A stretch of 18,304 nt of DNA from Candidatus Heimdallarchaeota archaeon. GTDB taxonomy: Archaea > Asgardarchaeota > Heimdallarchaeia > Heimdallarchaeales > Heimdallarchaeaceae. Under the pieces are notes generated by a model. The model made no database searches. It was not told where the DNA came from and was given only the letters and a program-made list of their open reading frames with translations. Of this stretch, positions 1,470 to 18,220 are shown piece by piece. Made by a program: the position numbers and the translations under genes. Position 1 is the stretch's first letter. Each line of letters starts with the position of its first letter. The stretch lies in the NCBI GenBank assembly GCA_018238545.1, contig JABCTC010000058.1:1-18304 (forward strand), written 5' to 3'.

Positions 1470-2144
1470 GCTCAAAAAGAACTCGTGAAAAAAATGGATG
1501 TAAAACAAATAATTGAATTGCAAAGAAGTTTAAGTGAGTATAAATTTTTTGCAGAAGATCAAAACTTCTTCTTTTTCTTTGAAGAAGATTATGACCTAAT
1601 GTATTCAGTTGAAAAAGAATTAATTGAAAAAGAATACTCTCTAGAAGAATATAGAGAAGTTATTCTAGAGAAAATCAAGCTGATTGATTATAATACAGCA
1701 ATGAAAGCTAGAGCAATAGTAGAAGAACTAACAGACTTTTACACTAACACTGAAGTGAAGAATATTACAAAAGCAGCAGCACTAAAAATTAGAACTGCCA
1801 TTGCTGCTTCTTTAGGAAATAGAAGATATTTCTCACAATCAGGAAGCCATGCGATATTGAACCCATTATCCTCCCCAAAATATACCTGGTGGGGAGACAT
1901 GTACTGGGATGGCTCAGGCGAGGAGCCTCTGGTGTTTCATATTAACTTCTATAAAGAGCAGAGAAGAATACCAACGGTCTCTCAAATTCGAGAGATTGAA
2001 TACGTTCTCTATCCTAGTGGAAATTATTCTTTTAATGATCTTGCTATCTCGAACTTCAAAGATTCTGAAACTGTTCTAAAAATGATGAAAGAAGAAACCG
2101 ATATAAGAATCTTTCAAGAGATAACACAACTAGAAATGGGCTAA
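1464..2144 (+). CDS. Hypothetical protein (acidic N-terminal region)
   Basis: 226-aa ORF with its own promoter and terminator-like repeat. No recognisable family. Confidence 0.75.
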   Translation: MNAQKELVKKMDVKQIIELQRSLSEYKFFAEDQNFFFFFEEDYDLMYSVEKELIEKEYSLEEYREVILEKIKLIDYNTAMKARAIVEELTDFYTNTEVKNITKAAALKIRTAIAASLGNRRYFSQSGSHAILNPLSSPKYTWWGDMYWDGSGEEPLVFHINFYKEQRRIPTVSQIREIEYVLYPSGNYSFNDLAISNFKDSETVLKMMKEETDIRIFQEITQLEMG

Positions 2145-2182
2145 TCTTTTTTCCCCTTTTCCCCTTTTTTTAGAATCGCTTA
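2142..2182 (+). repeat. 41-bp direct repeat copy 2 (stop codon plus terminator-like tract)
   Basis: Identical to 1332-1372 and again starts at the TAA of the upstream gene. Confidence 0.95.
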
Positions 2183-2345: not shown

Positions 2346-2373
2346 TTTAATAATATCAGAATCAGGGAATAAA

Positions 2374-2601
2374 ATGGCTAAAAAAAGTAGAACACAATTA
2401 ATGAAGGAAGCTATTACAGAAAAAATAGCTGAATTAGAAAAGGAGGGGGTAGAATACGTTTGTGATATATCAAACGCTAAAAATCCAAAATCAGATATAT
2501 ATATAATTAAAAGAGTAGCTTATGAAGAAGAAAAAAGATTTTGGTTAACTGTAACAGGGTTATATGAGTTGCTTGTTTTGAATGTCAATCCCTTTGAGTG
2601 A
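2374..2601 (+). CDS. Small hypothetical protein, first gene of the ibrAB operon
   Basis: Start reassigned from 2281 (GTG) to the ATG at 2374 (MAKKSRTQLMKEAI...), because the upstream extension runs through the TATA box. 75 aa, ending 6 bp before ibrA. Confidence 0.65.
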   Translation: MAKKSRTQLMKEAITEKIAELEKEGVEYVCDISNAKNPKSDIYIIKRVAYEEEKRFWLTVTGLYELLVLNVNPFE

Positions 2602-2607
2602 AAAAGA

Positions 2608-3879
2608 ATGAGTACTAAACAATATCTTGAAAAAAACGTTTATGATGCAACGAAAGAAAGATTAGAAGAGATATTCAAAAATTTTCGGAAAATATACGTT
2701 TCTTTTTCAGGAGGGAAAGATTCATCAATTTTATTACAGATGGTAGTAGAGTTCGCTCAACAATACAAAAAGAAGATAGGAGCGTTATTTGTGGATTTAG
2801 AAGGACAGTATAGAGCTACAATAACTCACGTAGAAGAAATGATGCTTAATAATGAGTTTATAGAACCTTACTGGGTTGCTTTACCAATCAATCTTAGGAA
2901 TGCTGTGAGTGTTTATCAATCACAGTGGCAATGTTGGAATCCAGCAAAAAAAGATAAGTGGGTGAGAGAGATGCCAAAATATGATTGTGTAATAAACTCT
3001 GAAGATTTTTTTCCCTTTTTTGAATATGGGATGGAGTTTGAGGAGTTTGTACCAAAATTTGGTGAGTGGTATGCTCAAGGAGAGAAAACTGCTTGTTTAG
3101 TAGCTATAAGAAGTGATGAAAGCCTAAATCGTTTTAGAACTATTAAAAACGAGAGAAAAGAGAGATATAAAGATAAGGGTTATTCTACAAAAGTTAGTAC
3201 AAACGTTTACAACTTCTATCCGATTTATGATTGGAAAACAGAAGATATATGGACAGCAGTAGGTCAACAAGAGTATAAATATAACAAAATCTACGATCTG
3301 ATGTATCAACAAGGAACGTCAATTCATAAAGCAAGATTATGTCAACCCTTTGGAGATGACCAAAGACAAGGACTAGAACTCTTCAGATATATTGAACCTG
3401 AAACATGGGTTAAAATAGTTGATAGAGTTGCAGGAGTAAATTATGGTAATCTCTATGCTAACACTTATTTGATGGGAAGAATGAAAACAATACTTCCTGA
3501 AGGGCATAGCTGGAAAACTTATACAGAATTTCTTTTAGAAACTTTACCTAAATATGAAGCTGAATGGTATAAACAGAAGTTCGAGGTCTTTTTTACCTGG
3601 TGGGCTAAACATCACAACTATTTCTATTACAAATATGATGAACAACAAAAAGACTACAAATCAGAAATGAATGAATATCATAAATTAAACAAAGGTTTTC
3701 CAAAAAAAATAGTAGACAAAGCTGAGAGAAAACTAGAAAGTAAAAGAGAACTGCCTTCTTGGAGAAGATTAGCAGAAGTAATAATAAAGAACGATAAATT
3801 GTGTAAAAGACTCTCTTTTGCAGGAACAAAAAGTCAATTTGAAAAATATAACCAAATGAGGGATATATATGGATATTAA
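2608..3879 (+). CDS. ibrA: IbrA/YbdN-like PAPS-reductase-family (PP-loop) protein with DUF3440 domain
   Basis: SFSGGKDS PP-loop. Further IbrA/YbdN-type motifs: LPINLRNAVS...WQCWNP, IRSDESLNRFRTI, YPIYDWKTEDIW, RLCQPFGDDQRQGL, PSWRR...KND..CKRLSF. Adjacent ParB-like partner. Confidence 0.92.
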   Translation: MSTKQYLEKNVYDATKERLEEIFKNFRKIYVSFSGGKDSSILLQMVVEFAQQYKKKIGALFVDLEGQYRATITHVEEMMLNNEFIEPYWVALPINLRNAVSVYQSQWQCWNPAKKDKWVREMPKYDCVINSEDFFPFFEYGMEFEEFVPKFGEWYAQGEKTACLVAIRSDESLNRFRTIKNERKERYKDKGYSTKVSTNVYNFYPIYDWKTEDIWTAVGQQEYKYNKIYDLMYQQGTSIHKARLCQPFGDDQRQGLELFRYIEPETWVKIVDRVAGVNYGNLYANTYLMGRMKTILPEGHSWKTYTEFLLETLPKYEAEWYKQKFEVFFTWWAKHHNYFYYKYDEQQKDYKSEMNEYHKLNKGFPKKIVDKAERKLESKRELPSWRRLAEVIIKNDKLCKRLSFAGTKSQFEKYNQMRDIYGY

Positions 3880-4495
3880 AGAGATAAAAAAGAATATAAA
3901 GAAAGAATTAGCAAAAATTGTTACAATAACAGATCTGCAAGTAAGTGAAAAAATATTGTTATTAAATGAGTTAAGAGAAATGATACAAGAGATAAGTCCA
4001 TTTGATGAGCCTGTTGATCTCGTAAGATGGGTCCCTTCAGAACTTGTTATAGCAAATGAGTATAACCCAAATAGAGTAGCGCCTCCTGAAATGAAATTAT
4101 TGGAGGTTTCTATTGATCAAGATGGATATACTCAACCTATAGTGACATTCAAAGAAGATGGCCATTATACTGTAGTAGATGGTTTTCATAGAAACAGAGT
4201 AGGAAAAGAATGTGAAGGAATAAAAGAAAAAATACATAGCCATCTTCCGATAGTAGTTATTGACAAACCATTGACAGATCGTATGGCTGCAACAATCAGA
4301 CACAACAGAGCAAGAGGAACACATGCCGTTGCTCCAATGAGCAAAGTTATAGAAGAGCTGTATTTTCTAGGATGGTCAGATAAGAAGATATCTGAACAAC
4401 TAGGAATGGAAAAAGATGAGGTGTTGAGATTGAAACAATTCACAGGTTTAGGCAATCTTTTCAAAAACAGAGAATATTCTAAAGCTTGGGAATAA
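3869..4495 (+). CDS. ibrB: IbrB/YbdM-like ParB/Sulfiredoxin-domain protein
   Basis: Motifs ANEYNPNRVAPPEMKLL, DGYTQPIV, VVDGFHR, RMAATIRHNRARGTH, LGMEKDEVLRLKQ and terminal SKAWE. Overlaps the ibrA stop by 11 bp. Confidence 0.93.
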   Translation: MDIKEIKKNIKKELAKIVTITDLQVSEKILLLNELREMIQEISPFDEPVDLVRWVPSELVIANEYNPNRVAPPEMKLLEVSIDQDGYTQPIVTFKEDGHYTVVDGFHRNRVGKECEGIKEKIHSHLPIVVIDKPLTDRMAATIRHNRARGTHAVAPMSKVIEELYFLGWSDKKISEQLGMEKDEVLRLKQFTGLGNLFKNREYSKAWE

Positions 4496-4502
4496 TTCCT
4501 AA

Positions 4503-5192
4503 TTATTTTTCTTTATGTTTCCAATAGAGAAAGTTATCTGTTTGATCTAAATGGTCAAATTCAGGGTCAAAGAAAGTCACAAAACGAGCATATTCCCAGC
4601 CCCACATTTTAGCTTCTTGCGCATAAGTAGAAGGATAAGGAAGGAAATGAGCAACAATGTAAGCCCAAATATCCAACCATGTCCACTCTCGTAAAGGAAA
4701 GGCATTATAGACTCTTTTTTGAGAATCAAGTTCTAATAATTTAGCTGCACGTCTTTTTCTTTTTCCACTTTCTTCTTTTCGTAAACCGATTAAACACAGA
4801 TTTATAGAGTTGTTTTTTTGGTATCTTTCTAATGCAGCAAAGAAAGACCTGTACCCTGCTCCCTTTGATTCGTTTGTTGTAACCCTTTTATCAATATGTA
4901 ATTGCTTAGAAGTAAGCTTAAAGTGTTCCTTAAGAATTGTTAAAACTTCCTTTTCAATCTTTCTAGGCATGTAAACACCATAATCCCAATGCCAAACCCT
5001 TATGGAAGGAGAAATTTTCAAGCATAAATCTAACATTACAAGGGAGTCTTTTCCTCCTGAAACACTTACAGAAGGATTAGAGAAACGAGAGAAAAGCTCG
5101 CTCAATTCTAGTTTTGTTGAATGAAGTTTGTGAGCATATTCATCATTCGTTGCTGCATGAACACGAAAAAGTTCCTTTGTCTTTTCATTCAT
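4503..5192 (-). CDS. cysH: Type IV-B CRISPR-associated CysH-like PAPS-reductase-family protein
   Basis: SVSGGKDSLVML PP-loop, IGLRKEESGKR, and FPLREWTWLDIWAYI. Last gene of the csf operon. Start reassigned to 5192 (MNEKTKELF), overlapping the csf3 stop. Lacks the C-terminal ECGLH-type catalytic Cys of true reductases. Confidence 0.88.
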   Translation of the reverse strand: MNEKTKELFRVHAATNDEYAHKLHSTKLELSELFSRFSNPSVSVSGGKDSLVMLDLCLKISPSIRVWHWDYGVYMPRKIEKEVLTILKEHFKLTSKQLHIDKRVTTNESKGAGYRSFFAALERYQKNNSINLCLIGLRKEESGKRKRRAAKLLELDSQKRVYNAFPLREWTWLDIWAYIVAHFLPYPSTYAQEAKMWGWEYARFVTFFDPEFDHLDQTDNFLYWKHKEK

Positions 5193-5964
5193 TTGAAACA
5201 ACCTCAGTAAAGGGAGGAACACAATAAGTATGATTCTGTTTTTCCCAATAAGGAGGACGATAAGAAAGAAAAGCATACTCGGAAGGAAGGAGATTCAGGT
5301 GTTGGAGAACATAATTAGCTGGAAGGGGCTTAGTTGTTTTACTGTTTTTGATAAAAGAATAGTCCTCATCAACTGAAATAATAGAATAGTCTTGAATTCT
5401 TCCATAACCATAAGAACTTTTTTTACCTAAATAGAAGAGCTCAGATAGAAGGGAAGACAATTGTTTCTTATCTCCTTTAGCAAAAAAAGTTACTTCAGGA
5501 GAATAGTTTCCTGCAAACTTAATAGCAAAAGAACGATATATTCCTCCATCTACTCTAATCTTTCTCTTCTTTGTTTGTAAATTCTCTGTAAATCTGTCAT
5601 CAAATCGCTTATAGACTGTTTCACTTGTTATAGCATTTTCATCCGAAACTATTGAAACAGAGGCACGATAAAAAAAGACTTGTTGATCATCAACAACAAA
5701 GTGTTCTTTTTCTAAAGGTACAGGAAGATAAGCATTGAAAGGTATAGGTTGTCTTGTAGGTAGTAGAGAATAATATTCTTGAAAGATTTCTTGAGCCATC
5801 AAATGAGAAATGATTCCATCAAAATGTATCCATGGATAAGTGAGGAGCATAGGAGAGGAAAGAGAAAAAGTTATCTGTAAAGGTTCAAAAAGCCATTTAG
5901 GACTTGTTTCTGAAAACTTTCGCACTTTTTCTCTTAATATTTCTTCTAAAGTCATTTCAATCAT
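5185..5964 (-). CDS. csf3: Type IV CRISPR-associated Csf3 (Cas5 family RAMP)
   Basis: PLQITFSLSSP...HFDGIISH, YRASV, VTFFAKGD, Gly-rich loop LGKKSSYGYGRI, and C-terminal RPPYW. Follows csf2. The start could be 5976, 5964 or 5955. Confidence 0.88.
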   Translation of the reverse strand: MIEMTLEEILREKVRKFSETSPKWLFEPLQITFSLSSPMLLTYPWIHFDGIISHLMAQEIFQEYYSLLPTRQPIPFNAYLPVPLEKEHFVVDDQQVFFYRASVSIVSDENAITSETVYKRFDDRFTENLQTKKRKIRVDGGIYRSFAIKFAGNYSPEVTFFAKGDKKQLSSLLSELFYLGKKSSYGYGRIQDYSIISVDEDYSFIKNSKTTKPLPANYVLQHLNLLPSEYAFLSYRPPYWEKQNHTYCVPPFTEVVSNE

Positions 5965-6796
5965 ACCATGAACCAAGTTTTTCCAAGAGGTTTACAATTT
6001 CCGAGGAATGTTCTTCAATAAATTTCAAATATAGTTTGTTAGGAATAGTTTTATCATAATCTATAGAAAGATGACCAAAACCTGAACTACTTTTCCCTCC
6101 AATATAAGGAAGGTTTTTCCACAGATCTATTAGATGGCCTAAAAAGGAATATTCAAGATCTGTTCCTTTCACTAATACAAAACCATGAAAGAATTTTGTT
6201 CCAGGAATAAATATTTCTATATCTACTTTCATCTGTACAGTGGGGTCATTCTCACTTTTTTCTAATCCGCTGACACCCGCTTCTTCTTTGCGAGTAAAGA
6301 AACTATGATCCAGAAAACTATAAATCTCGTGAGTACAATACTTTTGAAATTCAGAAGGTACGAGTGCTTTTGTTTCAGAGCATAAAGGCAATAACTCATT
6401 AACTTTAAGTTTCCCTGGAAGAACTTGGTTACCATAGCTCATTCCATAAACAGAGATGGGGATTAGAACTTCTTGAATCTTTTTCCTCATCTCTAAATCT
6501 AATTGTCCAGCATTCTTTTTTACAGATTCGAGAACACCTCCAGAAAAAAGAGCATGATACAAACTAGTGTTTTTTAGCGTATAATCTACTCTTTGAAGGA
6601 TATCTTGCATGGCCAATCTTCTTAAGTAACCTCTCACAGCATTTCCACTGACAAAAGGTAGTTCCATCGGTCTACCATCTACGAAAAATTTCTGTCTTCT
6701 TAATAACTGACTTGCACCAGTTTTTTCATTTCCTCCATGATGGATAGGACTCAAAGCTGTTATAATTCCGTTGATTTTTCTAGTTTGTAATTTCAT
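5957..6796 (-). CDS. csf2: Type IV CRISPR-associated Csf2 (Cas7 family backbone)
   Basis: ITALSPIHHGG, LPFVSGNAVRGYLRR, LFSGGVL, NQVLPGKLKV, EIFIPGTKF, and Gly-rich loop IGGKSSSGFG. Confidence 0.93.
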   Translation of the reverse strand: MKLQTRKINGIITALSPIHHGGNEKTGASQLLRRQKFFVDGRPMELPFVSGNAVRGYLRRLAMQDILQRVDYTLKNTSLYHALFSGGVLESVKKNAGQLDLEMRKKIQEVLIPISVYGMSYGNQVLPGKLKVNELLPLCSETKALVPSEFQKYCTHEIYSFLDHSFFTRKEEAGVSGLEKSENDPTVQMKVDIEIFIPGTKFFHGFVLVKGTDLEYSFLGHLIDLWKNLPYIGGKSSSGFGHLSIDYDKTIPNKLYLKFIEEHSSEIVNLLEKLGSWYD

Positions 6797-7242
6797 GATA
6801 ATTTACCTTCTTTGTAAGCTTGATTAAGTAGTTGTGAAAGCTCTATTGCTTTTCTTGAGATGTAAATAGCGTTCTCATCTCTAATTGTTGCAAAAGCTCG
6901 TTTTTTATCTAATTCCAGAGCATCAATAACTGAAGAATGCAAGGAAACATTTTGTAAACTTAATAAATTACAGAGTTTTCCAACAAATTTAGGTATGCTA
7001 TCCTGAACTCCTGCAACCTTGAGTTTATGTTGAAAAACATCTTCTGAGCGAATCTTTGGCGATTTAGCTATTTTTCGCCAATCAGCTCTTAGATAGATTT
7101 TTGCTAAAACATAACTCATATACTTGTATGTTTCAATTCTTTCTCCTTCATCTAAAGGAAAAACTATTTCTTGTTGTTCGACCCAGTGGTCCAATAAAAT
7201 CAGTTCTTTTTTTAATCGTTCATACTCATTTTCATTTAACAA
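6793..7242 (-). CDS. cas11: Type IV-B small subunit (Cas11-like)
   Basis: 149-aa helical-looking protein between csf1 and csf2, the position of the IV-B small subunit. TTG start with GGTGA 6 nt upstream. ATGA overlap with csf2. The call is mainly positional. Confidence 0.7.
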   Translation of the reverse strand: MLNENEYERLKKELILLDHWVEQQEIVFPLDEGERIETYKYMSYVLAKIYLRADWRKIAKSPKIRSEDVFQHKLKVAGVQDSIPKFVGKLCNLLSLQNVSLHSSVIDALELDKKRAFATIRDENAIYISRKAIELSQLLNQAYKEGKLS

Positions 7243-7864
7243 AATTTATCACCCATTTCCAAATTAAATTTTTTCTAACAGATTTTAAAAAAGAAAGATC
7301 TGTTCTAATATCTGTAAGTTTATAGAGATTTTTTGAATTGACTATACTGCTTAATAACTCCTGTTTTGATATTCCCAAAAGTCTAAATTGTTCGGCTTTT
7401 GTAATATGTTCTTTAAGCTGCTTAGAAGTCAAGGAAAGTAGCTGCATATCATAAGCTAAAGTAAATCTATTCAAGGAGTAGTTGAGAGTGTTTAATAGAT
7501 TTAACCAACCTTGTTTTTTATAAGTTGAAGTTGTATAAATTACAAAAGGTAAATCAGCTACTTTTAATGATTGTAGCGCAGGTAAAACGTCTGATTTATG
7601 TAGAAAAGAAAAACTGTTAGTAGTGAGTAGCCAGTTTCTTTTGCGGTAGTCTTGTGTTTCGTAAAGATGCTTACAAGCAGGACAGATTAAACCCGTATCA
7701 TGCAGATAATCTGCACGAGTAAAAGTTTTCTTTAACTGAAGAGTATAAAGATCTGTTCCTTTAATACCACAAAAAGCGCAACATCCTTCAAGCGTACCAT
7801 GAATTAGGGGAATTTTACGAGTAGAGACAAGTAATTGAGAAAGGGAAGTAAAGTTTTTTATCAT
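7232..7864 (-). CDS. csf1: Type IV CRISPR-associated Csf1 (Cas8-like large subunit, Zn-finger)
   Basis: CAFCG...KTFTRADYL...ICPAC zinc finger and PFVIYTTSTYKKQGW motif. First gene of the csf operon. Confidence 0.82.
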   Translation of the reverse strand: MIKNFTSLSQLLVSTRKIPLIHGTLEGCCAFCGIKGTDLYTLQLKKTFTRADYLHDTGLICPACKHLYETQDYRKRNWLLTTNSFSFLHKSDVLPALQSLKVADLPFVIYTTSTYKKQGWLNLLNTLNYSLNRFTLAYDMQLLSLTSKQLKEHITKAEQFRLLGISKQELLSSIVNSKNLYKLTDIRTDLSFLKSVRKNLIWKWVINFVK

Positions 7865-8309: not shown

Positions 8310-9722
8310 TTATGACCCCGACTTCCTGCTCTTTGTTTTAGCCTTAGATCCCTTAACTTTTTTAGTTGCTGCTTGTTCTTTTTCCAAGACTTTTTGGTCT
8401 GTTGGGGTGGGGGAAGAGGGCTCATAAAGTGTCTGGGGAGTCTGGGTAATCTGGTACGTTTTGAAAACAGCTTCATTAGAACGTATAACACAATAACAGA
8501 GCTCACAGTGAAAACCTTCTTTTAATAGCTTAAACATCTCACCTGAAAGCATTTTAGACGTTGGTGATTCTCTCTGTTTTCTCATTTTGACTTCAATAGC
8601 TTTACTTTTATCTGGAGAAAGAAGATCTATTCTTCCAGTACCAGCTATTCTTTTGTAACCAGCATAATACTCTCCTGGTTGAGTTAATTGATATTCTATT
8701 AAGTGACCAATAATTTCTGTTCTAATAATAGCCAACCAACCTGAATTGTTATAATTGTTTGTGATTGATGAATCGGATACTTTAAACTTGTCTGCAATTT
8801 CACTAGCACTATCCTTTTTTAAATACCTGATAAATGCTTCAGTGTGTTTATGTTTAAGTTTCTTGGTTTCAAGATTAATTTTCTTTTTGATAAATTTCCA
8901 ATTATACAAGGATCGGATAATCATCTCATTACCACTAAATTCTCTTAATTCAAGGAAGTTATAATCTCCATCAGTTGTCTCGAAAATATTAACAGGTTCA
9001 GCTTCAGCTTCTATCTCAGTAATGATTGAATCATCAGAAGATATAAAATCATAAGTAATGAAGCCTGTATCTCCACAGATTGTACTAGCAACACATTCCG
9101 AAAGAGCTTCATAGTTGTGCTTCTTGAAAACTTGATCACTGATATCATCTAATTTCTTTATAGCAACGAGGCCAATCTTTTTAGCCAATTTGTTTTTATC
9201 GTGATCATTAGTTGGAGCATTTTTGTAAATGTCAACATGAACGGTTGAACGAAGTTTCTTAGTAATAAGATAGATATCCTGAACTGCAAAGAAAACAACA
9301 ATAACACCATTTTTCTTCCCAATATCTTTTCTTTTCTCTTCAAAAATATGTCTTATCCTAGTAAATTTTGAGATTAGTTTTTTAGCAGCATCTTGATTTT
9401 CTAACCCTGCATCATCAACAAATAGTACTTGAACAGGTTTAGAGTCTATATTAGCCATTAAAACATCTAAAGATTCGTGTATGATGAGATTAACATTCTT
9501 TAGATCAGAAAAATATTTTAACCAAGCGAAGAATCCCATAGATCTATAGAGGCTAGTCTTGCCTGTCCCCATGATTCCATATACTTGACTTGAACGAAAT
9601 TGTATGTTGTCTCCCTTAGGTATAGGAGGGAAAAGGATAGAAATAACATCTTTAGTGATATCCTGTAATTCTACTTGAATGATTGATTGTTCAATCTCAG
9701 GAGAATAGTCTAAGCCGTACAT
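8310..9722 (-). CDS. Zot/pI-like (FtsK-HerA-related) morphogenesis ATPase fused to HTH and PD-(D/E)XK nuclease-like domains
   Basis: Walker A GIMGTGKT, Walker B VLFVDDAG, RIRH, and FFAVQDIYLITKKLR (Q sensor/Arg-finger pattern). HTH SASEIADKFKVSDSSIT. Nuclease-like GHLIE...RIDLL...AIEVK. Start reassigned to 9722 (MYGLDY; GAGGG RBS, short overlap with the upstream stop). Confidence 0.75.
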   Translation of the reverse strand: MYGLDYSPEIEQSIIQVELQDITKDVISILFPPIPKGDNIQFRSSQVYGIMGTGKTSLYRSMGFFAWLKYFSDLKNVNLIIHESLDVLMANIDSKPVQVLFVDDAGLENQDAAKKLISKFTRIRHIFEEKRKDIGKKNGVIVVFFAVQDIYLITKKLRSTVHVDIYKNAPTNDHDKNKLAKKIGLVAIKKLDDISDQVFKKHNYEALSECVASTICGDTGFITYDFISSDDSIITEIEAEAEPVNIFETTDGDYNFLELREFSGNEMIIRSLYNWKFIKKKINLETKKLKHKHTEAFIRYLKKDSASEIADKFKVSDSSITNNYNNSGWLAIIRTEIIGHLIEYQLTQPGEYYAGYKRIAGTGRIDLLSPDKSKAIEVKMRKQRESPTSKMLSGEMFKLLKEGFHCELCYCVIRSNEAVFKTYQITQTPQTLYEPSSPTPTDQKVLEKEQAATKKVKGSKAKTKSRKSGS

Positions 9723-10381
9723 TTTGTTTCCCTCTTTTGATCTTCCTTTAGTTTTTGCTGAGTTTTTTTGTAAAAATGCCAAGTGATAAGATTGATTTGA
9801 TAAGCTGTTCTTACTTGCCACATGAAAATAGGACTAGCTCTTTCAGCTTTGCCAGGTAGCCAAATAGAAGTGTCAGGATTAAGGACTTTGATTTTGTTTC
9901 CTTCTTCATCAACTTTATTCGTGTAATGTTTGTATTTATCTCTGTTTTCGAAAATATCATCAGCTCGTTGAACAGCAGCAAGAGAGCGAATATTCACAGC
10001 ATCAGGCTTGATAAAAATAGCAACAGGGCGCTTAAATTTTGGTGAAGATTCTATTTTATGTGCAGCAACAGCTAGAAGTCTTAGGCCATGAATATCTTTT
10101 CTTTGAATGTTTGCCCAATACTGTAAGCCCTGCAAACCATATTTAATCACAATAATTTTAGACCAGTAATTATAATGAAAACAACAATGACCAACAGGCT
10201 GACCGTCTACTTTTCCTAGATTGTCATCAGAGAACCATTTTCTTTCTAACCAGTTTTGCCAGTCAAATAATAATCCTTGGCATTTGTAGAAAGTGTTTCC
10301 ACCCACCAGTGCAGAAAGTTTGAAATCACTATAAACCAAAGGTTCAAGGATCTCTAAAAATTCATCACGAGCCTTGCTCAT
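9710..10381 (-). CDS. Hypothetical soluble protein
   Basis: 223-aa ORF coupled by ATGA overlap to the upstream gene. No recognised motif. Confidence 0.75.
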   Translation of the reverse strand: MSKARDEFLEILEPLVYSDFKLSALVGGNTFYKCQGLLFDWQNWLERKWFSDDNLGKVDGQPVGHCCFHYNYWSKIIVIKYGLQGLQYWANIQRKDIHGLRLLAVAAHKIESSPKFKRPVAIFIKPDAVNIRSLAAVQRADDIFENRDKYKHYTNKVDEEGNKIKVLNPDTSIWLPGKAERASPIFMWQVRTAYQINLITWHFYKKTQQKLKEDQKRETKCTA

Positions 10382-11382
10382 TTCTCATCACTTTTTTGTT
10401 TCTTTTGATCCTCGCTTAATGTTAATAGATCCTTTTGGCTAGCAGTACTATCCTCACGTTCTTTGTATAAACCTTCATAGAACTTTTGAGTGTCAAAATA
10501 ACTATCAGTGAAATTAGGACATCTTTCGTTAGCAAATTCTAATAAAACATCATCTCCTACATTATCGATGTGAGTCTGTAATTTGATGACTTTCTTACGT
10601 GAAAGATGTGCCCGACTAACAGCTTTGAAAACTATTTTCTCATTAATTGTTTTTTCAACTTGTGTTTTCCCTCGATTAACCTCGTCTAATTCGTCTAAAT
10701 CACTTTGAGGTATTAAACAACCAGCATTAAGCATCAAATCCTTTGTCTCTTTATCTCTAAGGAAGATTCTACCAAGACGATAGTGAGTAGGCAAAAGAGG
10801 AAGAACACGGGTTCGGATATCTTTTCCTCTTACACGTTTGTAAGTATGTGTTCGAGCATTTTGCAAGATATAATCCCAGGTAACACCATCAATGTAAACC
10901 TTTGCAGAACCATAAATTAATTGTCCAAAATTTGATTTTCTTCTAACTTTTAAAGCATTGCCTGAAGTGGTTTGAATAAATTCATACTCTTTGTGACCAT
11001 CATTTGTTTTATCATATAACTCTACAATATCTTTAGGCATGAAATAATCAAGTATAATTAATCCTGCAACTAGTACACAGAAAACAGAAAGAATGATTAT
11101 CCAGGTATAAGAAATGAAACCAATAATGAAGGAACCAAAGCCACCAAAAAAAGCAATTAAAGCTTGTTGTAGATCTCGAGTATTAGCTAGAATAATAAAG
11201 AAAATAACTGCAGTTATACTTATGGTCCATAAGATTACTTTCTTTTTGTTAGCTCCAAACCAATCTAACCACCAGGGCATAGCTGAAGTGATGTTTTCTC
11301 GGATATGAATTTTTATACCATCTTCGTTCATCCCTTCTATTTCTTCATTAGTTAAAGCAAGATTTCTAAATGTGTTTTTCAT
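10378..11382 (-). CDS. Membrane protein with N-terminal TM helices and large soluble C-terminal domain
   Basis: 334 aa with 2-3 hydrophobic segments at about residues 49-113. ATGA overlaps on both sides. Confidence 0.8.
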   Translation of the reverse strand: MKNTFRNLALTNEEIEGMNEDGIKIHIRENITSAMPWWLDWFGANKKKVILWTISITAVIFFIILANTRDLQQALIAFFGGFGSFIIGFISYTWIIILSVFCVLVAGLIILDYFMPKDIVELYDKTNDGHKEYEFIQTTSGNALKVRRKSNFGQLIYGSAKVYIDGVTWDYILQNARTHTYKRVRGKDIRTRVLPLLPTHYRLGRIFLRDKETKDLMLNAGCLIPQSDLDELDEVNRGKTQVEKTINEKIVFKAVSRAHLSRKKVIKLQTHIDNVGDDVLLEFANERCPNFTDSYFDTQKFYEGLYKEREDSTASQKDLLTLSEDQKKQKSDEK

Positions 11383-11996
11383 TGTTCATCACTTCTCTGA
11401 TATTTCTTACGAGCTATTAACCAGATCAATAGACCTCCACCTATAGCTCCTAAAATTATTTGAGCAATAGCCCAGTAAAGTTTGTTAAGTGCTTTCCGAT
11501 GATCTTCTATACTGACATAGTCATCTTCTTCCCAAGGAGGAATATAGTATGATTCTTCAGAATAAAAGTATTCTAAGTAGATCTTTGCATAAGTGATATC
11601 TCCTGGTTCATTAGTGACTGAAACTATACAATATATTTCTCCTTTTGAATCGGGATTAGGAGAGACAATCACTTTTCTTGTTTTAGAGAATAAACCAAGC
11701 TCGTTAGTTGTATCTACATAAGATTCTATTTCAGAATCAAATATTTTTAATCTAAAGGTAATATTGTCAAAGCTATTCGCAGTAACAATCATCTCAGCAA
11801 TGCTAACGCCTGAACCGTTGAAAAAACCAACAGTAGTAATAGAAAGAACACCACGTTGATTGAAGAACACGGATTGATAGTCAAACACCCCTCCATCGCC
11901 ATAATCAAGAGGAACCTCAAGTATTATAGCAGAAGTGAGAGAGGACACACAAATAACAGTTAATAAAACAACAATTATACTAGATTTCTTTTTCAT
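11379..11996 (-). CDS. Type I membrane protein (signal peptide, beta-rich ectodomain, C-terminal anchor); putative virion envelope protein
   Basis: MKKK + hydrophobic signal, and C-terminal TM AIAQIILGAIGGGLLIWLIA followed by RKK. Coupled to the adhesin gene. Confidence 0.8.
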   Translation of the reverse strand: MKKKSSIIVVLLTVICVSSLTSAIILEVPLDYGDGGVFDYQSVFFNQRGVLSITTVGFFNGSGVSIAEMIVTANSFDNITFRLKIFDSEIESYVDTTNELGLFSKTRKVIVSPNPDSKGEIYCIVSVTNEPGDITYAKIYLEYFYSEESYYIPPWEEDDYVSIEDHRKALNKLYWAIAQIILGAIGGGLLIWLIARKKYQRSDEQ

Positions 11997-14900
11997 TTTT
12001 GTTTACCTCGTTTATAGCCTACTAAACGATCATATTTACTCGACCAAAGCAACTGTAAGAAGGTTTCAGCAAAGAGACTGGGTTTCTTTCCCTCTCGAAT
12101 TGTTTTCTCAAGCTTCTTCACAATAGCATTGCCGATAGCATTGTAACTAATTAGTAGAACTATCAAGAGAAGAACCAGAGCGATATAGAACCAATATTGA
12201 ACAAAGAAATCTACAACTTTATCCCACCAAGTTTTTTCTCCATCGTCATCATCATCAGTTACTAAAGGAATGGTAATAGAGAAAGGAACTCTTTCAGGAG
12301 GAGGTTCAACATTTGGATCATGTAACCAATACCAAAGAGTAACACCATCAGATACGCTTTCTACTTTTTTGTAAATACGACATTCGTAAGTGGAATCAAT
12401 AACCCAGTAACTCTTTGATTCATATTGGCCGAGAATCATTGTTATGAGATCATCTGCATCAGTATCCCAATCAAGACCAGAAAGATAAGGTCGAATCTTT
12501 ATCATTCTGTCATCATTATCTAAATTGATAACATAGAGTTTTTCGAGAGGTAGTTCAATAGTCATACTCTGAATAATTCCGATGTCAATCGATACATTGT
12601 AAATGAGATTATCAAAGAGATCTCTCACAACAAGTCGGTGATTTCTAGCTGAATTATGAATCCATAGTCGATTATTGAGTATGTAGCTGTAATTACTATG
12701 TTCTTGGATTACGCTTGTATAATTGAGAGTATCAACTAAAACACCATTAAGATAAGTTAGAACAGAATCAACATCTATCTCAGGAACAGCTATGCCATAA
12801 ATTTTTTCAGTATAACGAATTTGACAATCATAGAAAAGAACAGTCTCATACCAAAAGAGAGGATAAGTAACAGTTTCGTTATATTCCGCAACAGGATATC
12901 CATCACTATTTGTTGTGCAGTTGTAGATTAAGATTAGAGAAACATTATGCCAACCTATTAAGGTGTCTTTAGCAATGCTGAAAGCTGTTAAAGTGGAATC
13001 ATCAACAATTAAAACAGAATCGTGATAAATATCTATCCAGAAATGGTCTAAATTAGTAATGAAAGAGATATTGAAGAACCCCTCGCTTTGCTCTCGATAA
13101 ATATCTGTATTAGGTTCAGGAGGAGGAATAAGGTTGCTGTACCAAGTCATAAAAAGAACTGTTTCAGCTCCATAAACGAATGCTACGGTGAGGTTGAAAA
13201 TTCCTGCTGTTGTTTCCTTGGGAATTATGATAAAAGTGCCTACACTTAGACCGTTACCACTACCAGAAGGAGTTCCGTTAGTGTAGGTTTCATAAGAGTA
13301 ATCGTAATTGCTTGTACAGTAGATACTCAGATAATCGTCAGAAGGATAAACATTCTCAACATCTACTTGAAATTCTTCTATTGCTGCAACAGTGTAAGTG
13401 AAGGAGTAAATAATGTCATCAAAATTTGTTACAGAGAAAATTAAGGTTACATAGTGCGTTCCTACTTCTGTGCTTTTAGTCCAAGAAGTAGTACTTGTCG
13501 GATCATCAGTTACTTTCTCAACATCATCTTCTATAGCTGTAAGACTATCAATGGTGTTTTTACTCGTATCCCAGGTAATGATAATGTTAGGAGCTGTGGT
13601 GTTAATTCGATAATCAGTAATAAAGAAATCTTGAGAAGGATTACTGTAAGTAGTATTAAACCAGATTGTAGAAGTGTCATTTACAAACTTTATAGCATAA
13701 TTAATTGTAACTCCAACAGTTAAATCTCTAGATGTTGAAATCGTTGTGCCAATAGCTGAAAGAGTACCAGAACCATCAGGAGTATTGTCTTTATAAACAT
13801 AATACTGACCATTGTAATTACTTGTTACATAAGTGCTAACATATAGATCCGAAAGATAGAAATTCTCGACAGAAACGCTGAAAGCAGTAGCTTCAACAGT
13901 GTAAAGATATTCATAAGTAGAACTGAGATAAGCTGTTTCTTCACCTGCACTGAAAAGAACATAAGTGAGATTATGAGAACCGACAGTATTATTCTTCAAA
14001 ATTGTTTGTAGATCGGAATAAACACCTAGGTAATTAGAATCAAGATAGATCTCGTATTGATTTGTATTGTTTGTGCTAGAAAGATAGAAAGAAGTATCAG
14101 TTTCAATCAATGTTGGAGTTTCTGAAAAAGTTGAGGGAGTGAAATAAAACTTTGAATAAAAACCACCACTCACAAGCTTAATAGATTTATAATATTCGTC
14201 TTCATCAGCTCCTGGAACTGTTTCATCTTCTCGCTCTGTTCTAATTCTGAATCCTTCTGTTTGTGATCCTGACCAATCACCAGTAGACCAAGTCATTAAA
14301 CTCAAATGTATTTGTAAATAAATATATTCTCCGTTCCCATAACAATAATTAGACGCATCTATAACCCCACTACTTAAAATATTAGGTGTACCATCAGCTC
14401 CATCATCTATGACAAATATTTCGTGTTCATCTCCAGTCGTTGCGGTTTTGAATGAAAATATTATCGTAGTGTAAATATCAGCATCAATGGTTATAGAACC
14501 ACCATTATCAATACCTTGTATTCCCATCCACCACCAATCGTAAGAACCCGAAACATTTTGAAATAGAACTCCTTCTCCTTCATCAGTTGTTTGACTTAAC
14601 GAGGAACGAGCATCAGAAGTTGGAACAAAACCGTCTAAATCTTCTTCAAAATCCCACCTATCATTTAATACTGTTTCAGCATAATCCCCGAACCAATTAT
14701 CATAAGTAAAAACTCTTACCTCGTATTCCTTTTGCTCGAAAGCATAAGGATGAATAACTGTTCCATGTCCAAATTCATCTGTTGTTACAGAATAAGAATG
14801 TTCTAGAGTTTGAGCAGTTCGATCCCAGAGCTCTACTTGATAATCTCTAAAAGAATCTTGAGTAAATTTATAACCATCTGCTACAACTCCATCAAAATCT

Positions 14901-16381
14901 ATTTGTGATTCACTTGATTGAGTTGTTTCTATAGTTGTAGAAGTTTGAAAAAGGAGTGATTCATAATCGAAATATACTGTAGCTGTTGTAGCTGAAACAT
15001 AAAATTGAAAGTTTCTTCCAGAGTCATCATCGATAATTTGCATATAAAATTGTAAGTTTTGCCATCGATCGATTATCGTATCATCAAAGTATTCATAGTT
15101 CCAAGCTGTACCATTCCACCAAGCTATTGAAACTGTTTCAGCTCCGCCAGAGATAGAATCAATATAAGCCCAGCAGGAGACATAATAATAATCGTTAGGT
15201 AAAAGAACATAAGAAATACCGTAAGTTCCTGCACTTTGAATAGTTTTAAGACTAGAATAACCAGCAAAAGCTTGCTCTGTTGATGTTTCAAAAGTTTCGA
15301 AAGGATTAGAAGCCCAATTTGTATAAATGTCTGTACTTCCTTCAAAACCAACATCCGTAAGAAAATCCGTTGAAGCGTCTTTTATTGCTAAATGATTAGA
15401 GCAATTTGAAGTGAATAAAACGGAATAGGTTGAAGGAATTGTGTTTGTAATAGTTAAATCATTACTTACAAAAGATGTAGTTGCAGTAGGAGTAATTGAA
15501 CTATAACCCCAGATCTCAGAAAGATTCAATGCTACAGTTGTTTCAAAAACAGGATTATAAAAATCGACTTTACCTAGTTTAGTTGTTGGAGAAGTATATT
15601 TTATTTGCATTCTAGCATTTTCTGTTATTTCATCTGCTTGATTATAAAAATAGTAAATATCCAAAGCTCCATCAAGATGATGTGAAGTGAATGTTCCTCC
15701 TGCGGTATTACTTGTCAGACCTGATGCAAGAGTAACCCAAGTTCCGTCAATATTCATTACTGCAATTGATAAAGTAAAATGCACCCACTGACTAGCACTA
15801 ATATAATACTGCTGTGATGTGATTTGAAAGAAGGCTTTACCATCTGATTGAATATAAGCAGAACTTAAAGCAAATGAACTCTCATGAGTAGAACCTGATA
15901 ACCAGCCTGTAACTTTTCTAGCTGAGGAACTGATTTTATAAAATGTTGTTCCAACCCTTGCTACATCGATAGCAAAAAAGACATAAACTTTTGTTTCATC
16001 GTCATTATCTTTATTGAATGCCTGAAAACTAGTATATGAAGCATAATTCCGAAAACCAGAATAAGAATCTTGTCCAGTCTCTGAATCTAAAGAAATCGTT
16101 ATAGTATCAAATTGATAATTTGCTTTAGCAAAACTAATTGTAGTATCTACTGTTTCGCCTAGATACCAGGTATTGTAGTCAATAACAGAGCTTGTTGTAG
16201 GAGATTCATTAACAGAATCATCAATAAATTTAGAATCAGTTATTTGTTCAGTTATTTGCTTTTCTTCTTGTAGATCTGTTAAAACAGTAGTATTTTCAGG
16301 ATTGAAGTAAAACATTGATCCTAAGAACAGCAATGTCATAATCAGTATAAATTTGTTGAGTTGTTTAGTGTAGTTTTTCAT
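11993..16381 (-). CDS. Giant membrane-anchored adhesin/spike glycoprotein with two CBM-like jelly-roll domains and about five Ig-like repeats
   Basis: 1462 aa, Thr/Ser/Tyr/Asp-rich, with N-terminal signal/TM and C-terminal TM (WFYIALVLLLIVLLISY). CBM4/9-like GFE...W...AFAGYSSLK...YYVSCW...W...YFD. Internal ~85-aa repeats. AGGTGA RBS. Confidence 0.85.
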   Translation of the reverse strand: MKNYTKQLNKFILIMTLLFLGSMFYFNPENTTVLTDLQEEKQITEQITDSKFIDDSVNESPTTSSVIDYNTWYLGETVDTTISFAKANYQFDTITISLDSETGQDSYSGFRNYASYTSFQAFNKDNDDETKVYVFFAIDVARVGTTFYKISSSARKVTGWLSGSTHESSFALSSAYIQSDGKAFFQITSQQYYISASQWVHFTLSIAVMNIDGTWVTLASGLTSNTAGGTFTSHHLDGALDIYYFYNQADEITENARMQIKYTSPTTKLGKVDFYNPVFETTVALNLSEIWGYSSITPTATTSFVSNDLTITNTIPSTYSVLFTSNCSNHLAIKDASTDFLTDVGFEGSTDIYTNWASNPFETFETSTEQAFAGYSSLKTIQSAGTYGISYVLLPNDYYYVSCWAYIDSISGGAETVSIAWWNGTAWNYEYFDDTIIDRWQNLQFYMQIIDDDSGRNFQFYVSATTATVYFDYESLLFQTSTTIETTQSSESQIDFDGVVADGYKFTQDSFRDYQVELWDRTAQTLEHSYSVTTDEFGHGTVIHPYAFEQKEYEVRVFTYDNWFGDYAETVLNDRWDFEEDLDGFVPTSDARSSLSQTTDEGEGVLFQNVSGSYDWWWMGIQGIDNGGSITIDADIYTTIIFSFKTATTGDEHEIFVIDDGADGTPNILSSGVIDASNYCYGNGEYIYLQIHLSLMTWSTGDWSGSQTEGFRIRTEREDETVPGADEDEYYKSIKLVSGGFYSKFYFTPSTFSETPTLIETDTSFYLSSTNNTNQYEIYLDSNYLGVYSDLQTILKNNTVGSHNLTYVLFSAGEETAYLSSTYEYLYTVEATAFSVSVENFYLSDLYVSTYVTSNYNGQYYVYKDNTPDGSGTLSAIGTTISTSRDLTVGVTINYAIKFVNDTSTIWFNTTYSNPSQDFFITDYRINTTAPNIIITWDTSKNTIDSLTAIEDDVEKVTDDPTSTTSWTKSTEVGTHYVTLIFSVTNFDDIIYSFTYTVAAIEEFQVDVENVYPSDDYLSIYCTSNYDYSYETYTNGTPSGSGNGLSVGTFIIIPKETTAGIFNLTVAFVYGAETVLFMTWYSNLIPPPEPNTDIYREQSEGFFNISFITNLDHFWIDIYHDSVLIVDDSTLTAFSIAKDTLIGWHNVSLILIYNCTTNSDGYPVAEYNETVTYPLFWYETVLFYDCQIRYTEKIYGIAVPEIDVDSVLTYLNGVLVDTLNYTSVIQEHSNYSYILNNRLWIHNSARNHRLVVRDLFDNLIYNVSIDIGIIQSMTIELPLEKLYVINLDNDDRMIKIRPYLSGLDWDTDADDLITMILGQYESKSYWVIDSTYECRIYKKVESVSDGVTLWYWLHDPNVEPPPERVPFSITIPLVTDDDDDGEKTWWDKVVDFFVQYWFYIALVLLLIVLLISYNAIGNAIVKKLEKTIREGKKPSLFAETFLQLLWSSKYDRLVGYKRGKQK

Positions 16382-16385
16382 TTTT

Positions 16386-16796
16386 TCACCTTATTTTAAT
16401 TTTGACCTGAACACACTTGGAAGACCTATAAAGGCTGAAATAACAAAATATCCCCCTAGCACAGGAATTAACATGTATTGTTACTATTAAGTCAGAAGCT
16501 GATGTTGCAGAAACCCAGTAGATAACAAAAACAATTATGGAAACAATACCTGCTAGCATAATAGCTAAAGTTCTATTGAATTTTGAGACAAAAGATAAAG
16601 CTAAAACTGGTAGAGAATACAACATTCCGAGTAATAAAATAACTTCGCCCCAATTGACTATAGCTAATTTTTCAATTATAATATCATAGCGACCAATAGT
16701 GATAACAGCAATGCCGATAATGCCGATACAATACAAAAACGAATAGAAATAGACGTTTTTACCAACAGTTTTAGCTCCTGAAGTGATTCTACCCAT
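16386..16796 (-). CDS. Multi-pass membrane protein
   Basis: Start reassigned to 16796 (MGRITSG; GAGGGG RBS, 8-bp overlap with the upstream gene). 136 aa with three or more TM segments. Confidence 0.75.
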   Translation of the reverse strand: MGRITSGAKTVGKNVYFYSFLYCIGIIGIAVITIGRYDIIIEKLAIVNWGEVILLLGMLYSLPVLALSFVSKFNRTLAIMLAGIVSIIVFVIYWVSATSASDLIVTIHVNSCARGIFCYFSLYRSSKCVQVKIKIR

Positions 16797-17022
16797 TTTT
16801 CTTATCCCCTCTTTTAGCTCCAAACTTCCAACCTTTCTTAGCAAGAAAGATGAGCAAGATAACGAAAGAAGCATAAATAACTCCCATGAGAAGATTACCT
16901 GCAGCAACCGAAAAAACAATTAGAAGAACAGGATAAAGAATACCTACAACAACAGCAGAGCTTATACCTATTTTTTTCTTCTTGGACCAATCAGACATTC
17001 CACGTAAATTCACTTTAACCAT
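16789..17022 (-). CDS. Small two-TM protein with basic termini; candidate virion structural protein
   Basis: 77 aa hydrophobic hairpin flanked by KKKK and KKGWK...KRGDKK. Confidence 0.75.
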   Translation of the reverse strand: MVKVNLRGMSDWSKKKKIGISSAVVVGILYPVLLIVFSVAAGNLLMGVIYASFVILLIFLAKKGWKFGAKRGDKKNG

Positions 17023-17024
17023 AA

Positions 17025-17690: not shown

Positions 17691-17694
17691 TTTT

Positions 17695-18006
17695 TCACGC
17701 CCAAGGAGCTATTGGCATTTCAAAATTCATGAAGCCACTTGTCCATGAACCGATTAATAACCAAGTGATCCACTGGAAAATGTACCAAGCGTAAGGAAAC
17801 CACGCTTCCATGAATGAGAAAGCAGCGTCTAAAACTAGTGAAGTTTGAGCTACTGTAAAAGGTTCCCAGTTTCCACCAAAGATGGCTACTATGCCAGCTC
17901 CAGCAGAACCAATAATCCATGTTGCTATGAATATTCCAACGAAACCAAGCACGAAACCAAATATGATCTTAAACACAAAACCAACTATCATATCTAACGG
18001 ATTCAT
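17695..18006 (-). CDS. Small hydrophobic membrane protein; candidate virion structural protein
   Basis: 103 aa, Gly/Phe/Trp-rich with two long hydrophobic segments. ATGA overlap with the upstream gene. Confidence 0.75.
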   Translation of the reverse strand: MNPLDMIVGFVFKIIFGFVLGFVGIFIATWIIGSAGAGIVAIFGGNWEPFTVAQTSLVLDAAFSFMEAWFPYAWYIFQWITWLLIGSWTSGFMNFEMPIAPWA

Positions 18007-18185: not shown

Positions 18186-18220
18186 TTTCTTTCACCTTAT
18201 CCTATAGAAAAAGAAAACAG

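Follow-up and report, generated by a model that had tools for sequence, protein, structure and literature searches.

A type IV-B CRISPR-Cas operon joined to ibrA and ibrB on an Asgard-associated element

Results

Two converging operons, one encoding type IV-B Cas proteins and the other IbrA and IbrB, lie next to a putative virion morphogenesis operon in the window, by which we mean the whole 18,304-base stretch of DNA analysed:

2142..2182, plus strand (second copy at 1332-1372): 41-bp exact repeat whose first bases are a stop codon; it marks the left end of the block common to the window and locus L088
2374..2601, plus strand: ORF of 75 aa, co-oriented with ibrA, without a family match among Pfam, PHROG and PADLOC-type profiles
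2608..3879, plus strand: ibrA, YbdN-like protein of 423 aa with a PP-loop PAPS-reductase fold and DUF3440 (PF01507 and PF11922)
3869..4495, plus strand: ibrB, YbdM-like ParB/Srx-fold protein of 208 aa (phrog_2159 'ParB-like', E 6e-71)
4496..4502, no strand: 7 bp that separate the ibrB stop codon (ending at 4495) from the oppositely oriented cysH stop codon (beginning at 4503)
4503..5192, minus strand: cysH (CasCysH), PP-loop PAPS-reductase-fold enzyme of 229 aa (PF01507, E 2e-20)
5185..5964, minus strand (longest ORF to 5976): csf3, Cas5-like, 259 aa (PADLOC Csf3_0_IV, E 8.4e-54)
5957..6796, minus strand: csf2, Cas7 backbone, 279 aa (PADLOC Csf2_0_IV, E 4.6e-65; TIGR03115; 118 homologs)
6793..7242, minus strand: cas11, small subunit, 149 aa (PADLOC Cas11_0_IV, E 3.5e-14)
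7232..7864, minus strand: csf1, Cas8-like large subunit, 210 aa, with two CxxC zinc-site motifs (PADLOC Csf1_0_IV, E 6.5e-25)
8310..18304, minus strand: putative virion morphogenesis operon, from its ORFs, with a P-loop ATPase, membrane proteins and a 1462-aa adhesin-like protein

The initial annotation had csf1-cas11-csf2-csf3-cysH on the minus strand converging on an orf-ibrA-ibrB unit on the plus strand, with 7 bp between the stops and an SGGKDS PP-loop in both operons. All genes lie at the place and on the strand described, the stop coordinates agree, and the motif occupies residues 34-39 of IbrA and 45-50 of CysH; the ibrA-ibrB part of the unit stands, and the 75-aa ORF drops out of it, having a homolog only in L088 and lying outside the conserved module. 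L088 is a 98%-identical locus that aligns by blastn with window positions 2142-8058 at 94.7%, beginning exactly at the 41-bp repeat (2142), and following its gene calls csf3 most likely starts at 5964 and cysH at 5192. The tail-to-tail junction that the initial annotation pointed out is not special: it is inverted relative to a co-directional order found in sister elements, most loci are co-directional, and we rejected the idea that the junction itself matters. The stop-to-stop gap in the related locus L090 is 12 bp. Because the operons converge in the window, they do not form a single transcript, a point that we count against our best explanation below.

The contig is probably a virus-like element and its long minus-strand operon probably serves virion morphogenesis. 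It was binned with an Asgard genome, probably of Heimdallarchaeia, and paralogs of the morphogenesis operon occur on contigs C97, C2, C23 and C128 of this host bin. The P-loop ATPase gave weak Zot-like leads (score 0.81) and no relative in IMG/VR; no capsid protein was identified, the small two-helix hydrophobic ORFs having no Pfam or PHROG match and the contig ending inside the operon.

The type IV-B assignment was borne out when PADLOC type IV HMMs matched Csf1, Cas11, Csf2 and Csf3, with the core genes csf1, csf2 and csf3 present and cas11 between csf1 and csf2. Csf scores fell below the TIGR equivalog cut-offs because those models are IV-A-centred, and C29, C32, C61 and C64 of Csf1 are invariant among 24 homologs. 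As had been stated for type IV-B loci, no cas6 or nuclease was found in the 18,304-base window (the element may extend further), nor a DinG/RecD helicase or adaptation genes. The window likewise yielded no tRNA and no source of guide RNA, having no CRISPR array, mini-array or Rfam match; L090 and the window share no conserved sequence upstream of csf1, and a scan for sigma-70 promoters and terminators gave counts at chance level.

The presence of two PAPS-reductase-like enzymes was confirmed, CysH matching PAPS_reduct and IbrA matching PAPS_reduct plus DUF3440 (4.6e-39). IbrA is 44-45% identical to phage proteins annotated IbrA and adjoins a ParB/Srx protein, as in IbrA/IbrB (YbdN/YbdM). The fold ascribed to IbrB agrees with a weak ParB_N match besides phrog_2159 and with profile-search matches to ParB/Noc structures, and its NPN and DGFHR motifs are invariant in the alignment. 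Alignments further show intact PP-loop and Arg-loop motifs in CasCysH (SGGKDS and GxRxxES.R) as well as in IbrA. The CasCysH model (pLDDT 90.7) matches APS/PAPS reductases, CysD and FAD synthase at Z 17-18, and the IbrA model matches the same folds at Z ~15; no DndC or TdpC chain was listed in these searches, in which IbrA was placed over residues 1-260 only, with DUF3440 within the full-length model. A predicted complex of CasCysH, Csf1 and Csf3 scored 0.21 against a mark of 0.32 and does not enter the argument.

Pfam and PHROG labels, weak DndC and BrxP HMM matches and the published reading of Asgard viral PAPS reductases (10.1101/2021.07.29.453957) would cast the two enzymes as auxiliary sulfur metabolism (true PAPS reductases) or Dnd/Ssp-like phosphorothioation. 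We consider this very unlikely: all equivalog scores lie far below cut-off (DndC, 29.3 bits against 290; cysH, 47 against 165), the C-terminal catalytic cysteine motif of canonical PAPS/APS reductases is absent from 30/30 CasCysH proteins and not conserved in IbrA, no DndD/SspC/BrxC P-loop ATPase was found, whether in the module or among the genes that recur near IV-B-linked loci, and no cysteine desulfurase recurs near those loci. Because CasCysH has no conserved cysteine in the alignment and IbrA neither a universally conserved cysteine nor a conserved CxxC (the Fe-S motif), the sulfur chemistry first envisaged is disfavoured as far as it would use the enzymes' own cysteines. It is also quite improbable that the substrates are proteins or signalling nucleotides, which the enzymes would adenylate or conjugate in the manner of QueC-like Cap9 or QatC to provide toxin or immunity functions in inter-element competition or superinfection exclusion. 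PP-loop folds do include protein-modifying defence enzymes, competition between elements is a role of other type IV subtypes (PMC11656645), and several related elements share the host bin; however, the match to Cap9-CdnD is weaker (Z 8-9) than those to APS/PAPS reductases, CysD and FAD synthase (Z 15-18), and the neighbouring genes mostly encode nucleic-acid modification enzymes, not effectors.

Co-occurrence of ibrAB and IV-B loci beyond chance, which the initial annotation had anticipated, is seen in neighbourhood counts: the 328 kb of flank near the operons hold 18 ibrAB matches, the 742 kb farther out none. With csf2 loci clustered at 95, 80 and 70% Csf2 identity, ibrA/ibrB occur in 19/122, 15/91 and 13/79 clusters (16-19% after dereplication), always in the operon or at most 1 kb away; for comparison, IbrA occurs in 135 of 50,697 cultured phage records. 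Some 80% of related IV-B loci are without ibrAB, so is the one Rhodococcus plasmid IV-B locus inspected, and most ibrAB loci lack csf genes; we count the first and last of these against our best explanation. The pairing takes at least eight gene orders, often csf3-ibrA-ibrB-cysH with overlapping start and stop codons, its cultured carriers being a Natrinema thermotolerans A29 plasmid, Thermoanaerobacter sp. A7A and Caldicoprobacter algeriensis, and it keeps re-forming in unrelated mobile elements. The same accessory slot or immediate flank of IV-B operons also takes DPPW-type amino-methyltransferase-like genes (a family with links to ParB-N6/N4 methylase, PF01555), GT2 and phage glucosyltransferases, SpoU and SAM-dependent methyltransferases, a GNAT and TGT-like barrels, many of these annotations resting on weak HMM matches. 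In 20/86 clusters the IV-B operon lies within 4 kb of terminase genes, a common moron insertion site, so part of the pairing pattern could come from shared timing with no chemistry in common.

Distances co-vary within each module, with Mantel rho of 0.71-0.84 among csf genes and cysH (0.78-0.84 for cysH, which overlaps csf3, with csf1, csf2 and csf3) and 0.74 for ibrA and ibrB. Between the ibrAB and csf/cysH sets there is no correlation (rho 0.02-0.17), ibrAB presence on the Csf2 tree requires 18 changes against 18.5 after shuffling, and the closest IbrA (73%) stands alone in a cassette between 71-bp direct repeats; one dedicated co-evolved system, as originally proposed, is not what these data describe. 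A single origin of the pairing was rejected: labels change at least 3 and as many as 6 times on the IbrA tree, and 18 times on that of Csf2. The closest IbrA lies beside a giant gene in a complete genome of the same family, probably on element HeimV2 of Heimdallarchaeum, and its having neither csf genes nor a helicase in cis is a caution for the pairing.

The missing cross-module correlation, the random distribution on the Csf2 tree and the solitary IbrA cassette are all consistent with two biochemically independent counter-defence or regulatory cassettes that share an insertion and expression hot spot, in which Csf would soak up host crRNAs or other small RNAs and IbrAB would separately activate or protect element genes. 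The RNA-sponge idea has been published (PMC7937560, 10.1101/780106). In the host bin, contig C75 carries a type I cas8-cas7-cas5-like trio, and spacer 2 of a 4-repeat array on C26 has a 34/41 match to the adhesin gene of a related element. We nevertheless hold this explanation to be somewhat unlikely: a hot spot does not predict that many lineages carry the insertion between csf3 and cysH, with codons overlapping, nor does it predict zero matches beyond 1 kb, the bias of the slot to modification enzymes, or retention of both modules through an inversion. All seven genes are kept in four Heimdallarchaeia-type loci (the window, L090, L273 and L275), in co-directional order in two, and on the tree of each module these loci make up a starred clade (99 and 100); an inversion in this Heimdallarchaeia-associated lineage has left both modules in place.

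Among csf-free clusters, 16/25 have an intact SNF2 helicase next to ibrA, against 0/15 of the IV-B-linked ones (Fisher p 4e-5). An SNF2-like remnant that lacks the Walker A motif persists in some IV-B-linked loci (hhalign 83%, E 1e-5). This pattern suggests that the Csf ribonucleoprotein might be a targeting or DNA-opening device for IbrA chemistry in place of the SNF2 motor, making modification RNA-directed. We regard this as unlikely: only 2-3 of the pairs are phylogenetically independent, which is not significant, and the helicase is missing from 9/25 csf-free clusters too. Of the Heimdallarchaeia-class ibrAB loci, three could be evaluated, the window's closest relative among them, and none has a helicase or csf genes in cis. 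IbrA and Csf give no co-evolution signal, with no guide RNA source in the window.

Discussion

We tentatively favour, with confidence a little short of even, a model in which two separable adenylating modules serve one nucleic-acid modification programme. It builds on what the genes encode and on their intact motifs, on the recurrent insertion, and on modules that evolve independently yet are retained together in the Heimdallarchaeia-associated lineage. Mobile elements would repeatedly bring two separately mobile modules under one expression unit, the shared benefit most likely being modification of the element's own nucleic acid. In the first module, Csf1, Cas11, Csf2 and Csf3 may assemble on a short RNA that no local array supplies, with CasCysH as their dedicated effector; the IV-B Csf complex of Mycobacterium sp. 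JS623 assembles on small RNA (PMC7937560), and type IV-B is still described as without known function (PMC11656645). In the second module, IbrA with its DUF3440 domain would work with IbrB, a presumptive nucleotide- and DNA-binding ParB/Srx-fold partner. Both CasCysH and IbrA would carry out ATP-dependent adenylation of a DNA or RNA phosphate or base, or of a small donor, with release of PPi, rather than PAPS reduction; AMPylation has been proposed for CasCysH (PMC8175902). The outcome might be protection from host restriction or CRISPR, or expression control. IbrAB would be one of several interchangeable modification enzymes in the IV-B accessory slot, and coupling of the modules would lie in pathway and timing, not in a fixed co-evolved interface. 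Evidence for the model is the bias of the slot to modification enzymes, the kept motifs, the recurrent insertion and the precedent of Dnd, Ssp and BREX-4; the chemistry, substrate and benefit are inferred. A more far-reaching version, to which we give a small chance, would make Csf complexes RNA-programmed modification platforms with CasCysH as an integral adenylating effector and IbrAB, methyltransferases and glycosyltransferases docked as exchangeable enzymes that act at RNA-specified sites, Csf replacing the SNF2 motor of the helicase-IbrA-IbrB cassette of phages.

IbrAB are reported by Sandt et al. to co-activate prophage genes. To our knowledge this is their only published role, which we count against our model, and we know of no IbrAB biochemistry, though the genes occur on hundreds of phages and plasmids. 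IbrAB have also been named 'prophage transcriptional regulators' (PMC8813620). The pairing brings together two poorly understood families, type IV-B and IbrAB, and their repeated joining and the slot enzymes narrow the search to adenylation-based nucleic-acid chemistry.

The locus shares with subtype IV-B the same five genes in the same order, the absence of cas6, adaptation genes, nuclease and an array in the window, a mobile-element location, and a CasCysH with SGGKDS and without the catalytic cysteine. It differs from published IV-B loci (PMC7937560, PMC10848311, 10.1101/2023.08.02.551345), among them the copies that archaeal viruses carry, in Fuxiviridae (PMC10848311) and in a Methanoperedens virus (10.1101/2023.08.02.551345), in being joined to ibrA-ibrB, which is unmentioned there, and in lying on an Asgard-associated element without tailed-virus genes; the Fuxivirus locus has a mini-array, whereas this one has none. 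In E. coli YbdN/YbdM (IbrA/IbrB), a PAPS_reduct plus DUF3440 protein likewise overlaps a ParB/Srx protein, and a further IbrA/IbrB copy is found on HeimV2 of Heimdallarchaeum (PMC8813620). The phage pairs usually follow an SNF2 helicase and the pair in the Heimdallarchaeum-family genome stands alone, whereas here ibrA-ibrB adjoin the type IV-B genes.

Dnd, Ssp, Tdp and BREX type 4 (DndC, SspD, TdpC and BrxP; DndB) also place a PAPS-reductase-fold PP-loop enzyme beside a ParB-fold protein and are a precedent for adenylation-based DNA modification; enzymes of this fold modify DNA in Dnd, Ssp and BREX-4 (PMC12914056). Unlike these systems, the locus lacks the conserved cysteine motif, a DndD/SspC/BrxC ATPase and a desulfurase, and its scores lie far below the family cut-offs. 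The layout of the element resembles that of wyrdviruses, spindle-shaped viruses of Asgard archaea with genomes of ~15-20 kb in which a few conserved genes lie between an adhesin and a soluble pI/Zot-like ATPase (10.1101/2021.07.29.453957). It differs in that no His1-like capsid protein or replication gene was identified here, and no Cas or IbrAB genes were reported for wyrdviruses (10.1101/2021.07.29.453957). A literature search for a link between IbrA and type IV CRISPR gave nothing relevant; Moya-Beltran 2021, Faure 2019 and the journal version of Medvedeva 2022 could mention one. The present copy adds an Asgard-associated lineage to the carriers of the pairing.

Locus and element

The initial annotation had described a type IV-B gene set and ibrA-ibrB on converging strands, and ORF listing and HMM scans bear this out, with 7 bp separating the stop codons of the two operons and an SGGKDS PP-loop present in both IbrA and CysH:

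2608-3879, plus strand, ibrA
3869-4495, plus strand, ibrB
4503-5192, minus strand, cysH
5185-5964, minus strand, csf3
5957-6796, minus strand, csf2
6793-7242, minus strand, cas11
7232-7864, minus strand, csf1

A 75-aa ORF precedes ibrA and, apart from locus L088 (98% identical), has no homolog. The window lacks any array, cas6, helicase, nuclease, tRNA or Rfam RNA.

The window spans all of contig C67, which belongs to a genome bin of 3.63 Mb and 92% completeness. True actins encoded in the bin (E 1e-135) identify the host as an Asgard archaeon, and contigs with close Csf2 homologs carry the NCBI names Heimdallarchaeaceae and Kariarchaeaceae; the host class is likely Heimdallarchaeia. Among 82 genomes of this class just one yielded csf2, which fits mobile cargo. 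An operon occupies the right half of the contig (8310-18304): it encodes membrane proteins, an adhesin-like protein of 1462 aa and a P-loop ATPase, has paralogs on bin contigs C97, C2, C23 and C128, and has a layout similar to that of a wyrdvirus; no capsid protein was identified in the window. Because the ATPase has no relative in IMG/VR, this morphogenesis-like operon possibly marks an undescribed Asgard virus group.

L088 is 94.7% identical to the window over a block that starts with the 41-bp repeat at 2142 and reaches at least 8058, and the genes left of that repeat differ, so the seven genes move together at short range. Unrelated genes have promoter-like starts in common and end in the same 41 bp (110-165, 1427-1482, 1332-1372 and 2142-2182); the start motif also occurs in the related locus L090, and a similar direct repeat flanks both sides of the cas6-ibrAB-IV-B block of locus L273. 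These shared starts, ends and flanking repeats suggest that cassettes are exchanged at common ends.

Association of IbrAB with type IV-B operons

Loci were gathered by Csf2 queries alone and then dereplicated; this partly non-independent sample covers the Csf2 clade close to the window, with viral, thermophile and archaeal members. Of its clusters at 95, 80 and 70% Csf2 identity, 19/122, 15/91 and 13/79, respectively, contained ibrA or ibrB. All of these genes sat within the operon or no more than 1 kb away (18 matches in 328 kb of near flank, 0 in 742 kb of farther flank), so that the proximity noted in the initial annotation exceeds chance. For comparison, 135 of 50,697 records of cultured phages contain IbrA. 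Gene orders include cysH-ibrA-ibrB, csf3-ibrA-ibrB-cysH, csf3-ibrB-ibrA-cysH, csf2-cysH-ibrA-ibrB-csf3, ibrA-ibrB-csf1 and the convergent form of the window, with frequent codon overlaps. Thermoanaerobacter sp. A7A and Caldicoprobacter algeriensis are among the carriers, as is the Natrinema thermotolerans A29 plasmid CP031299.1, where the order is csf1-cas11-csf2-csf3-x-x-ibrA-ibrB-cysH. Just upstream of its IV-B-IbrAB operon, at L289:2433-3512, this plasmid has a third PP-loop protein (SGGVDS) and a Gp37/Gp68-family gene. Altogether, the association is real, non-random and non-obligate.

In the 22 loci that hold the two modules, the pairwise distances of csf1, csf2, csf3 and cysH are correlated with one another (rho 0.71-0.84), and those of ibrA with those of ibrB (rho 0.74), whereas cross-module correlations are 0.02-0.17 and not significant. 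On the Csf2 tree, ibrAB presence requires 18 changes, the same as shuffled labels, and IV-B-linked IbrA appears in at least three and as many as six parts of the IbrA tree. The IbrA closest to that of the window (73%) is encoded in a complete genome from the host's family, where neither a csf gene nor a helicase lies beside ibrA. One strict co-evolved system is ruled against by the uncorrelated distances, the shuffle-like presence and this solo IbrA; of the combined system initially proposed, the non-random association stands and strict unity does not. By these sequence comparisons, the Csf complex has CysH as its dedicated partner, and IbrAB is a swappable accessory.

The closest solo ibrAB (L284 in genome G007) lies between 71-bp direct repeats (7663-7733 and 10419-10489, 94% identical), adjoins a giant gene and is followed by a 74-bp tandem duplication after ibrB.

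Within the Heimdallarchaeia-type lineage, the window, L090, L273 and L275 group together on both module trees, in clades that are starred (ibrAB, 99; csf-cysH, 100). The genes are all co-directional in L273 (cas6-ibrA-ibrB-csf1-cas11-csf2-csf3-cysH) and L275 (ibrA-GNAT-ibrB-csf1-cas11-csf2-csf3-cysH), and inversion of the csf-cysH block in such an order yields exactly the tail-to-tail layout of the window. Both modules thus stayed together while Csf2 diverged to 44-60% identity and the gene order was rearranged, the solo IbrA copy being the exception.

Predicted chemistry

Models of IbrA (pLDDT 82.5) and CysH (90.7) both match APS/PAPS reductases, CysD and FAD synthase, and the PP-loop and GxRxxES.R motifs are intact in both. 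No conserved cysteine is found in the alignment of CysH homologs; IbrA has a CQPYG cysteine in its main subfamily only and no CxxC, and IbrB keeps NPN and DGFHR. An SFGKDS PP-loop replaces SGGKDS in IbrA of L008, L009, L010, L171 and L219, and in two Heimdallarchaeia-class solo ibrAB copies (L285, L286). The kept motifs, cysteine pattern and fold matches favour a predicted ATP-dependent adenylation by IbrA and CysH over PAPS reduction and over classical phosphorothioation. AMPylation-type adenylation has been proposed for CasCysH (PMC8175902), and classical phosphorothioation requires a linked ATPase (PMC12914056). A role in sulfur metabolism or phosphorothioation is very improbable; adenylation of proteins or nucleotides in inter-element conflict we regard as a long shot.

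Alternative neighbours and function

A DPPW-motif amino-methyltransferase-like family (13 clusters within ~3 kb) occurs in the csf3/cysH gap or beside the IV-B operon of other loci. The same slot or flanks hold glucosyltransferases of GT2 and phage type, methyltransferases (SpoU and further SAM-dependent ones), a HAD phosphatase, a GNAT, TGT-like barrels and sometimes cas6, several of these labels being weak matches. TGT-like (queuine tRNA-ribosyltransferase-like) genes lie in or beside the operons of L154, L162, L167 and L135, with no cysH detected in L154 and L162. Many IV-B operons lie near a terminase gene, supporting the idea that independent cassettes share a hot spot, with Csf acting as an RNA sponge; we consider this somewhat unlikely.

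Alternatively, Csf might be an RNA-guided targeting device in place of SNF2. An intact SNF2 helicase precedes ibrA in 16/25 csf-free clusters versus 0/15 with csf genes, a contrast comprising only 2-3 independent pairs; Streptococcus thermophilus CHPC1230 and mycobacteriophage Gaia are examples of phages with the SNF2-ibrA-ibrB set. At some IV-B-linked loci an SNF2-like remnant that lacks Walker A persists. Neither a helicase nor csf genes accompany ibrAB at three evaluable loci in the host's class. We judge this replacement improbable.

cas6 is present in some IV-B operons (L137, L150, L153, L165, L148, L149, L270 and L273), usually in the csf3/cysH or csf2/csf3 gap and with no array detected nearby; these would be helpful for tracing the natural guide RNA. 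Short repeat arrays with CRISPR-like spacing occur in three IV-B loci (L114:815-950; L178:4043-4259, ~0.8 kb after cysH; L249:9418-9708).

The host bin (G000) carries a cas8-cas7-cas5-like trio (C75, 11234-14352), a cas1 fragment (C36), no cas6 by Pfam, and an orphan four-repeat CRISPR array (G000:C26:36260-36527) whose spacer 2 matches an adhesin gene on the related contig C23 at 34/41 positions. Directly preceding the first repeat, a palindrome-like 26-nt stretch (G000:C26:36238-36263), either leader end or orphan spacer, is identical to intergenic DNA in the related element L088 (7557-7582; 31/32 over a longer match) and absent from the window.

Gene identity, motif integrity and distribution are observed; going further, we infer, tentatively but in preference to these alternatives, two separable adenylating modules, repeatedly co-expressed, that would serve one nucleic-acid modification programme protecting or regulating the element.

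In the literature examined, the coverage of which is incomplete so that an earlier mention is possible, we found no mention of IbrAB linked to type IV-B. Each is known singly: archaeal viruses carry type IV-B systems (PMC10848311; 10.1101/2023.08.02.551345), and an element of Heimdallarchaeum carries IbrAB (PMC8813620). For IV-B loci, Shmakov et al. described genes encoding ADP-ribosyltransferase and N6-methylase (10.1101/270033).
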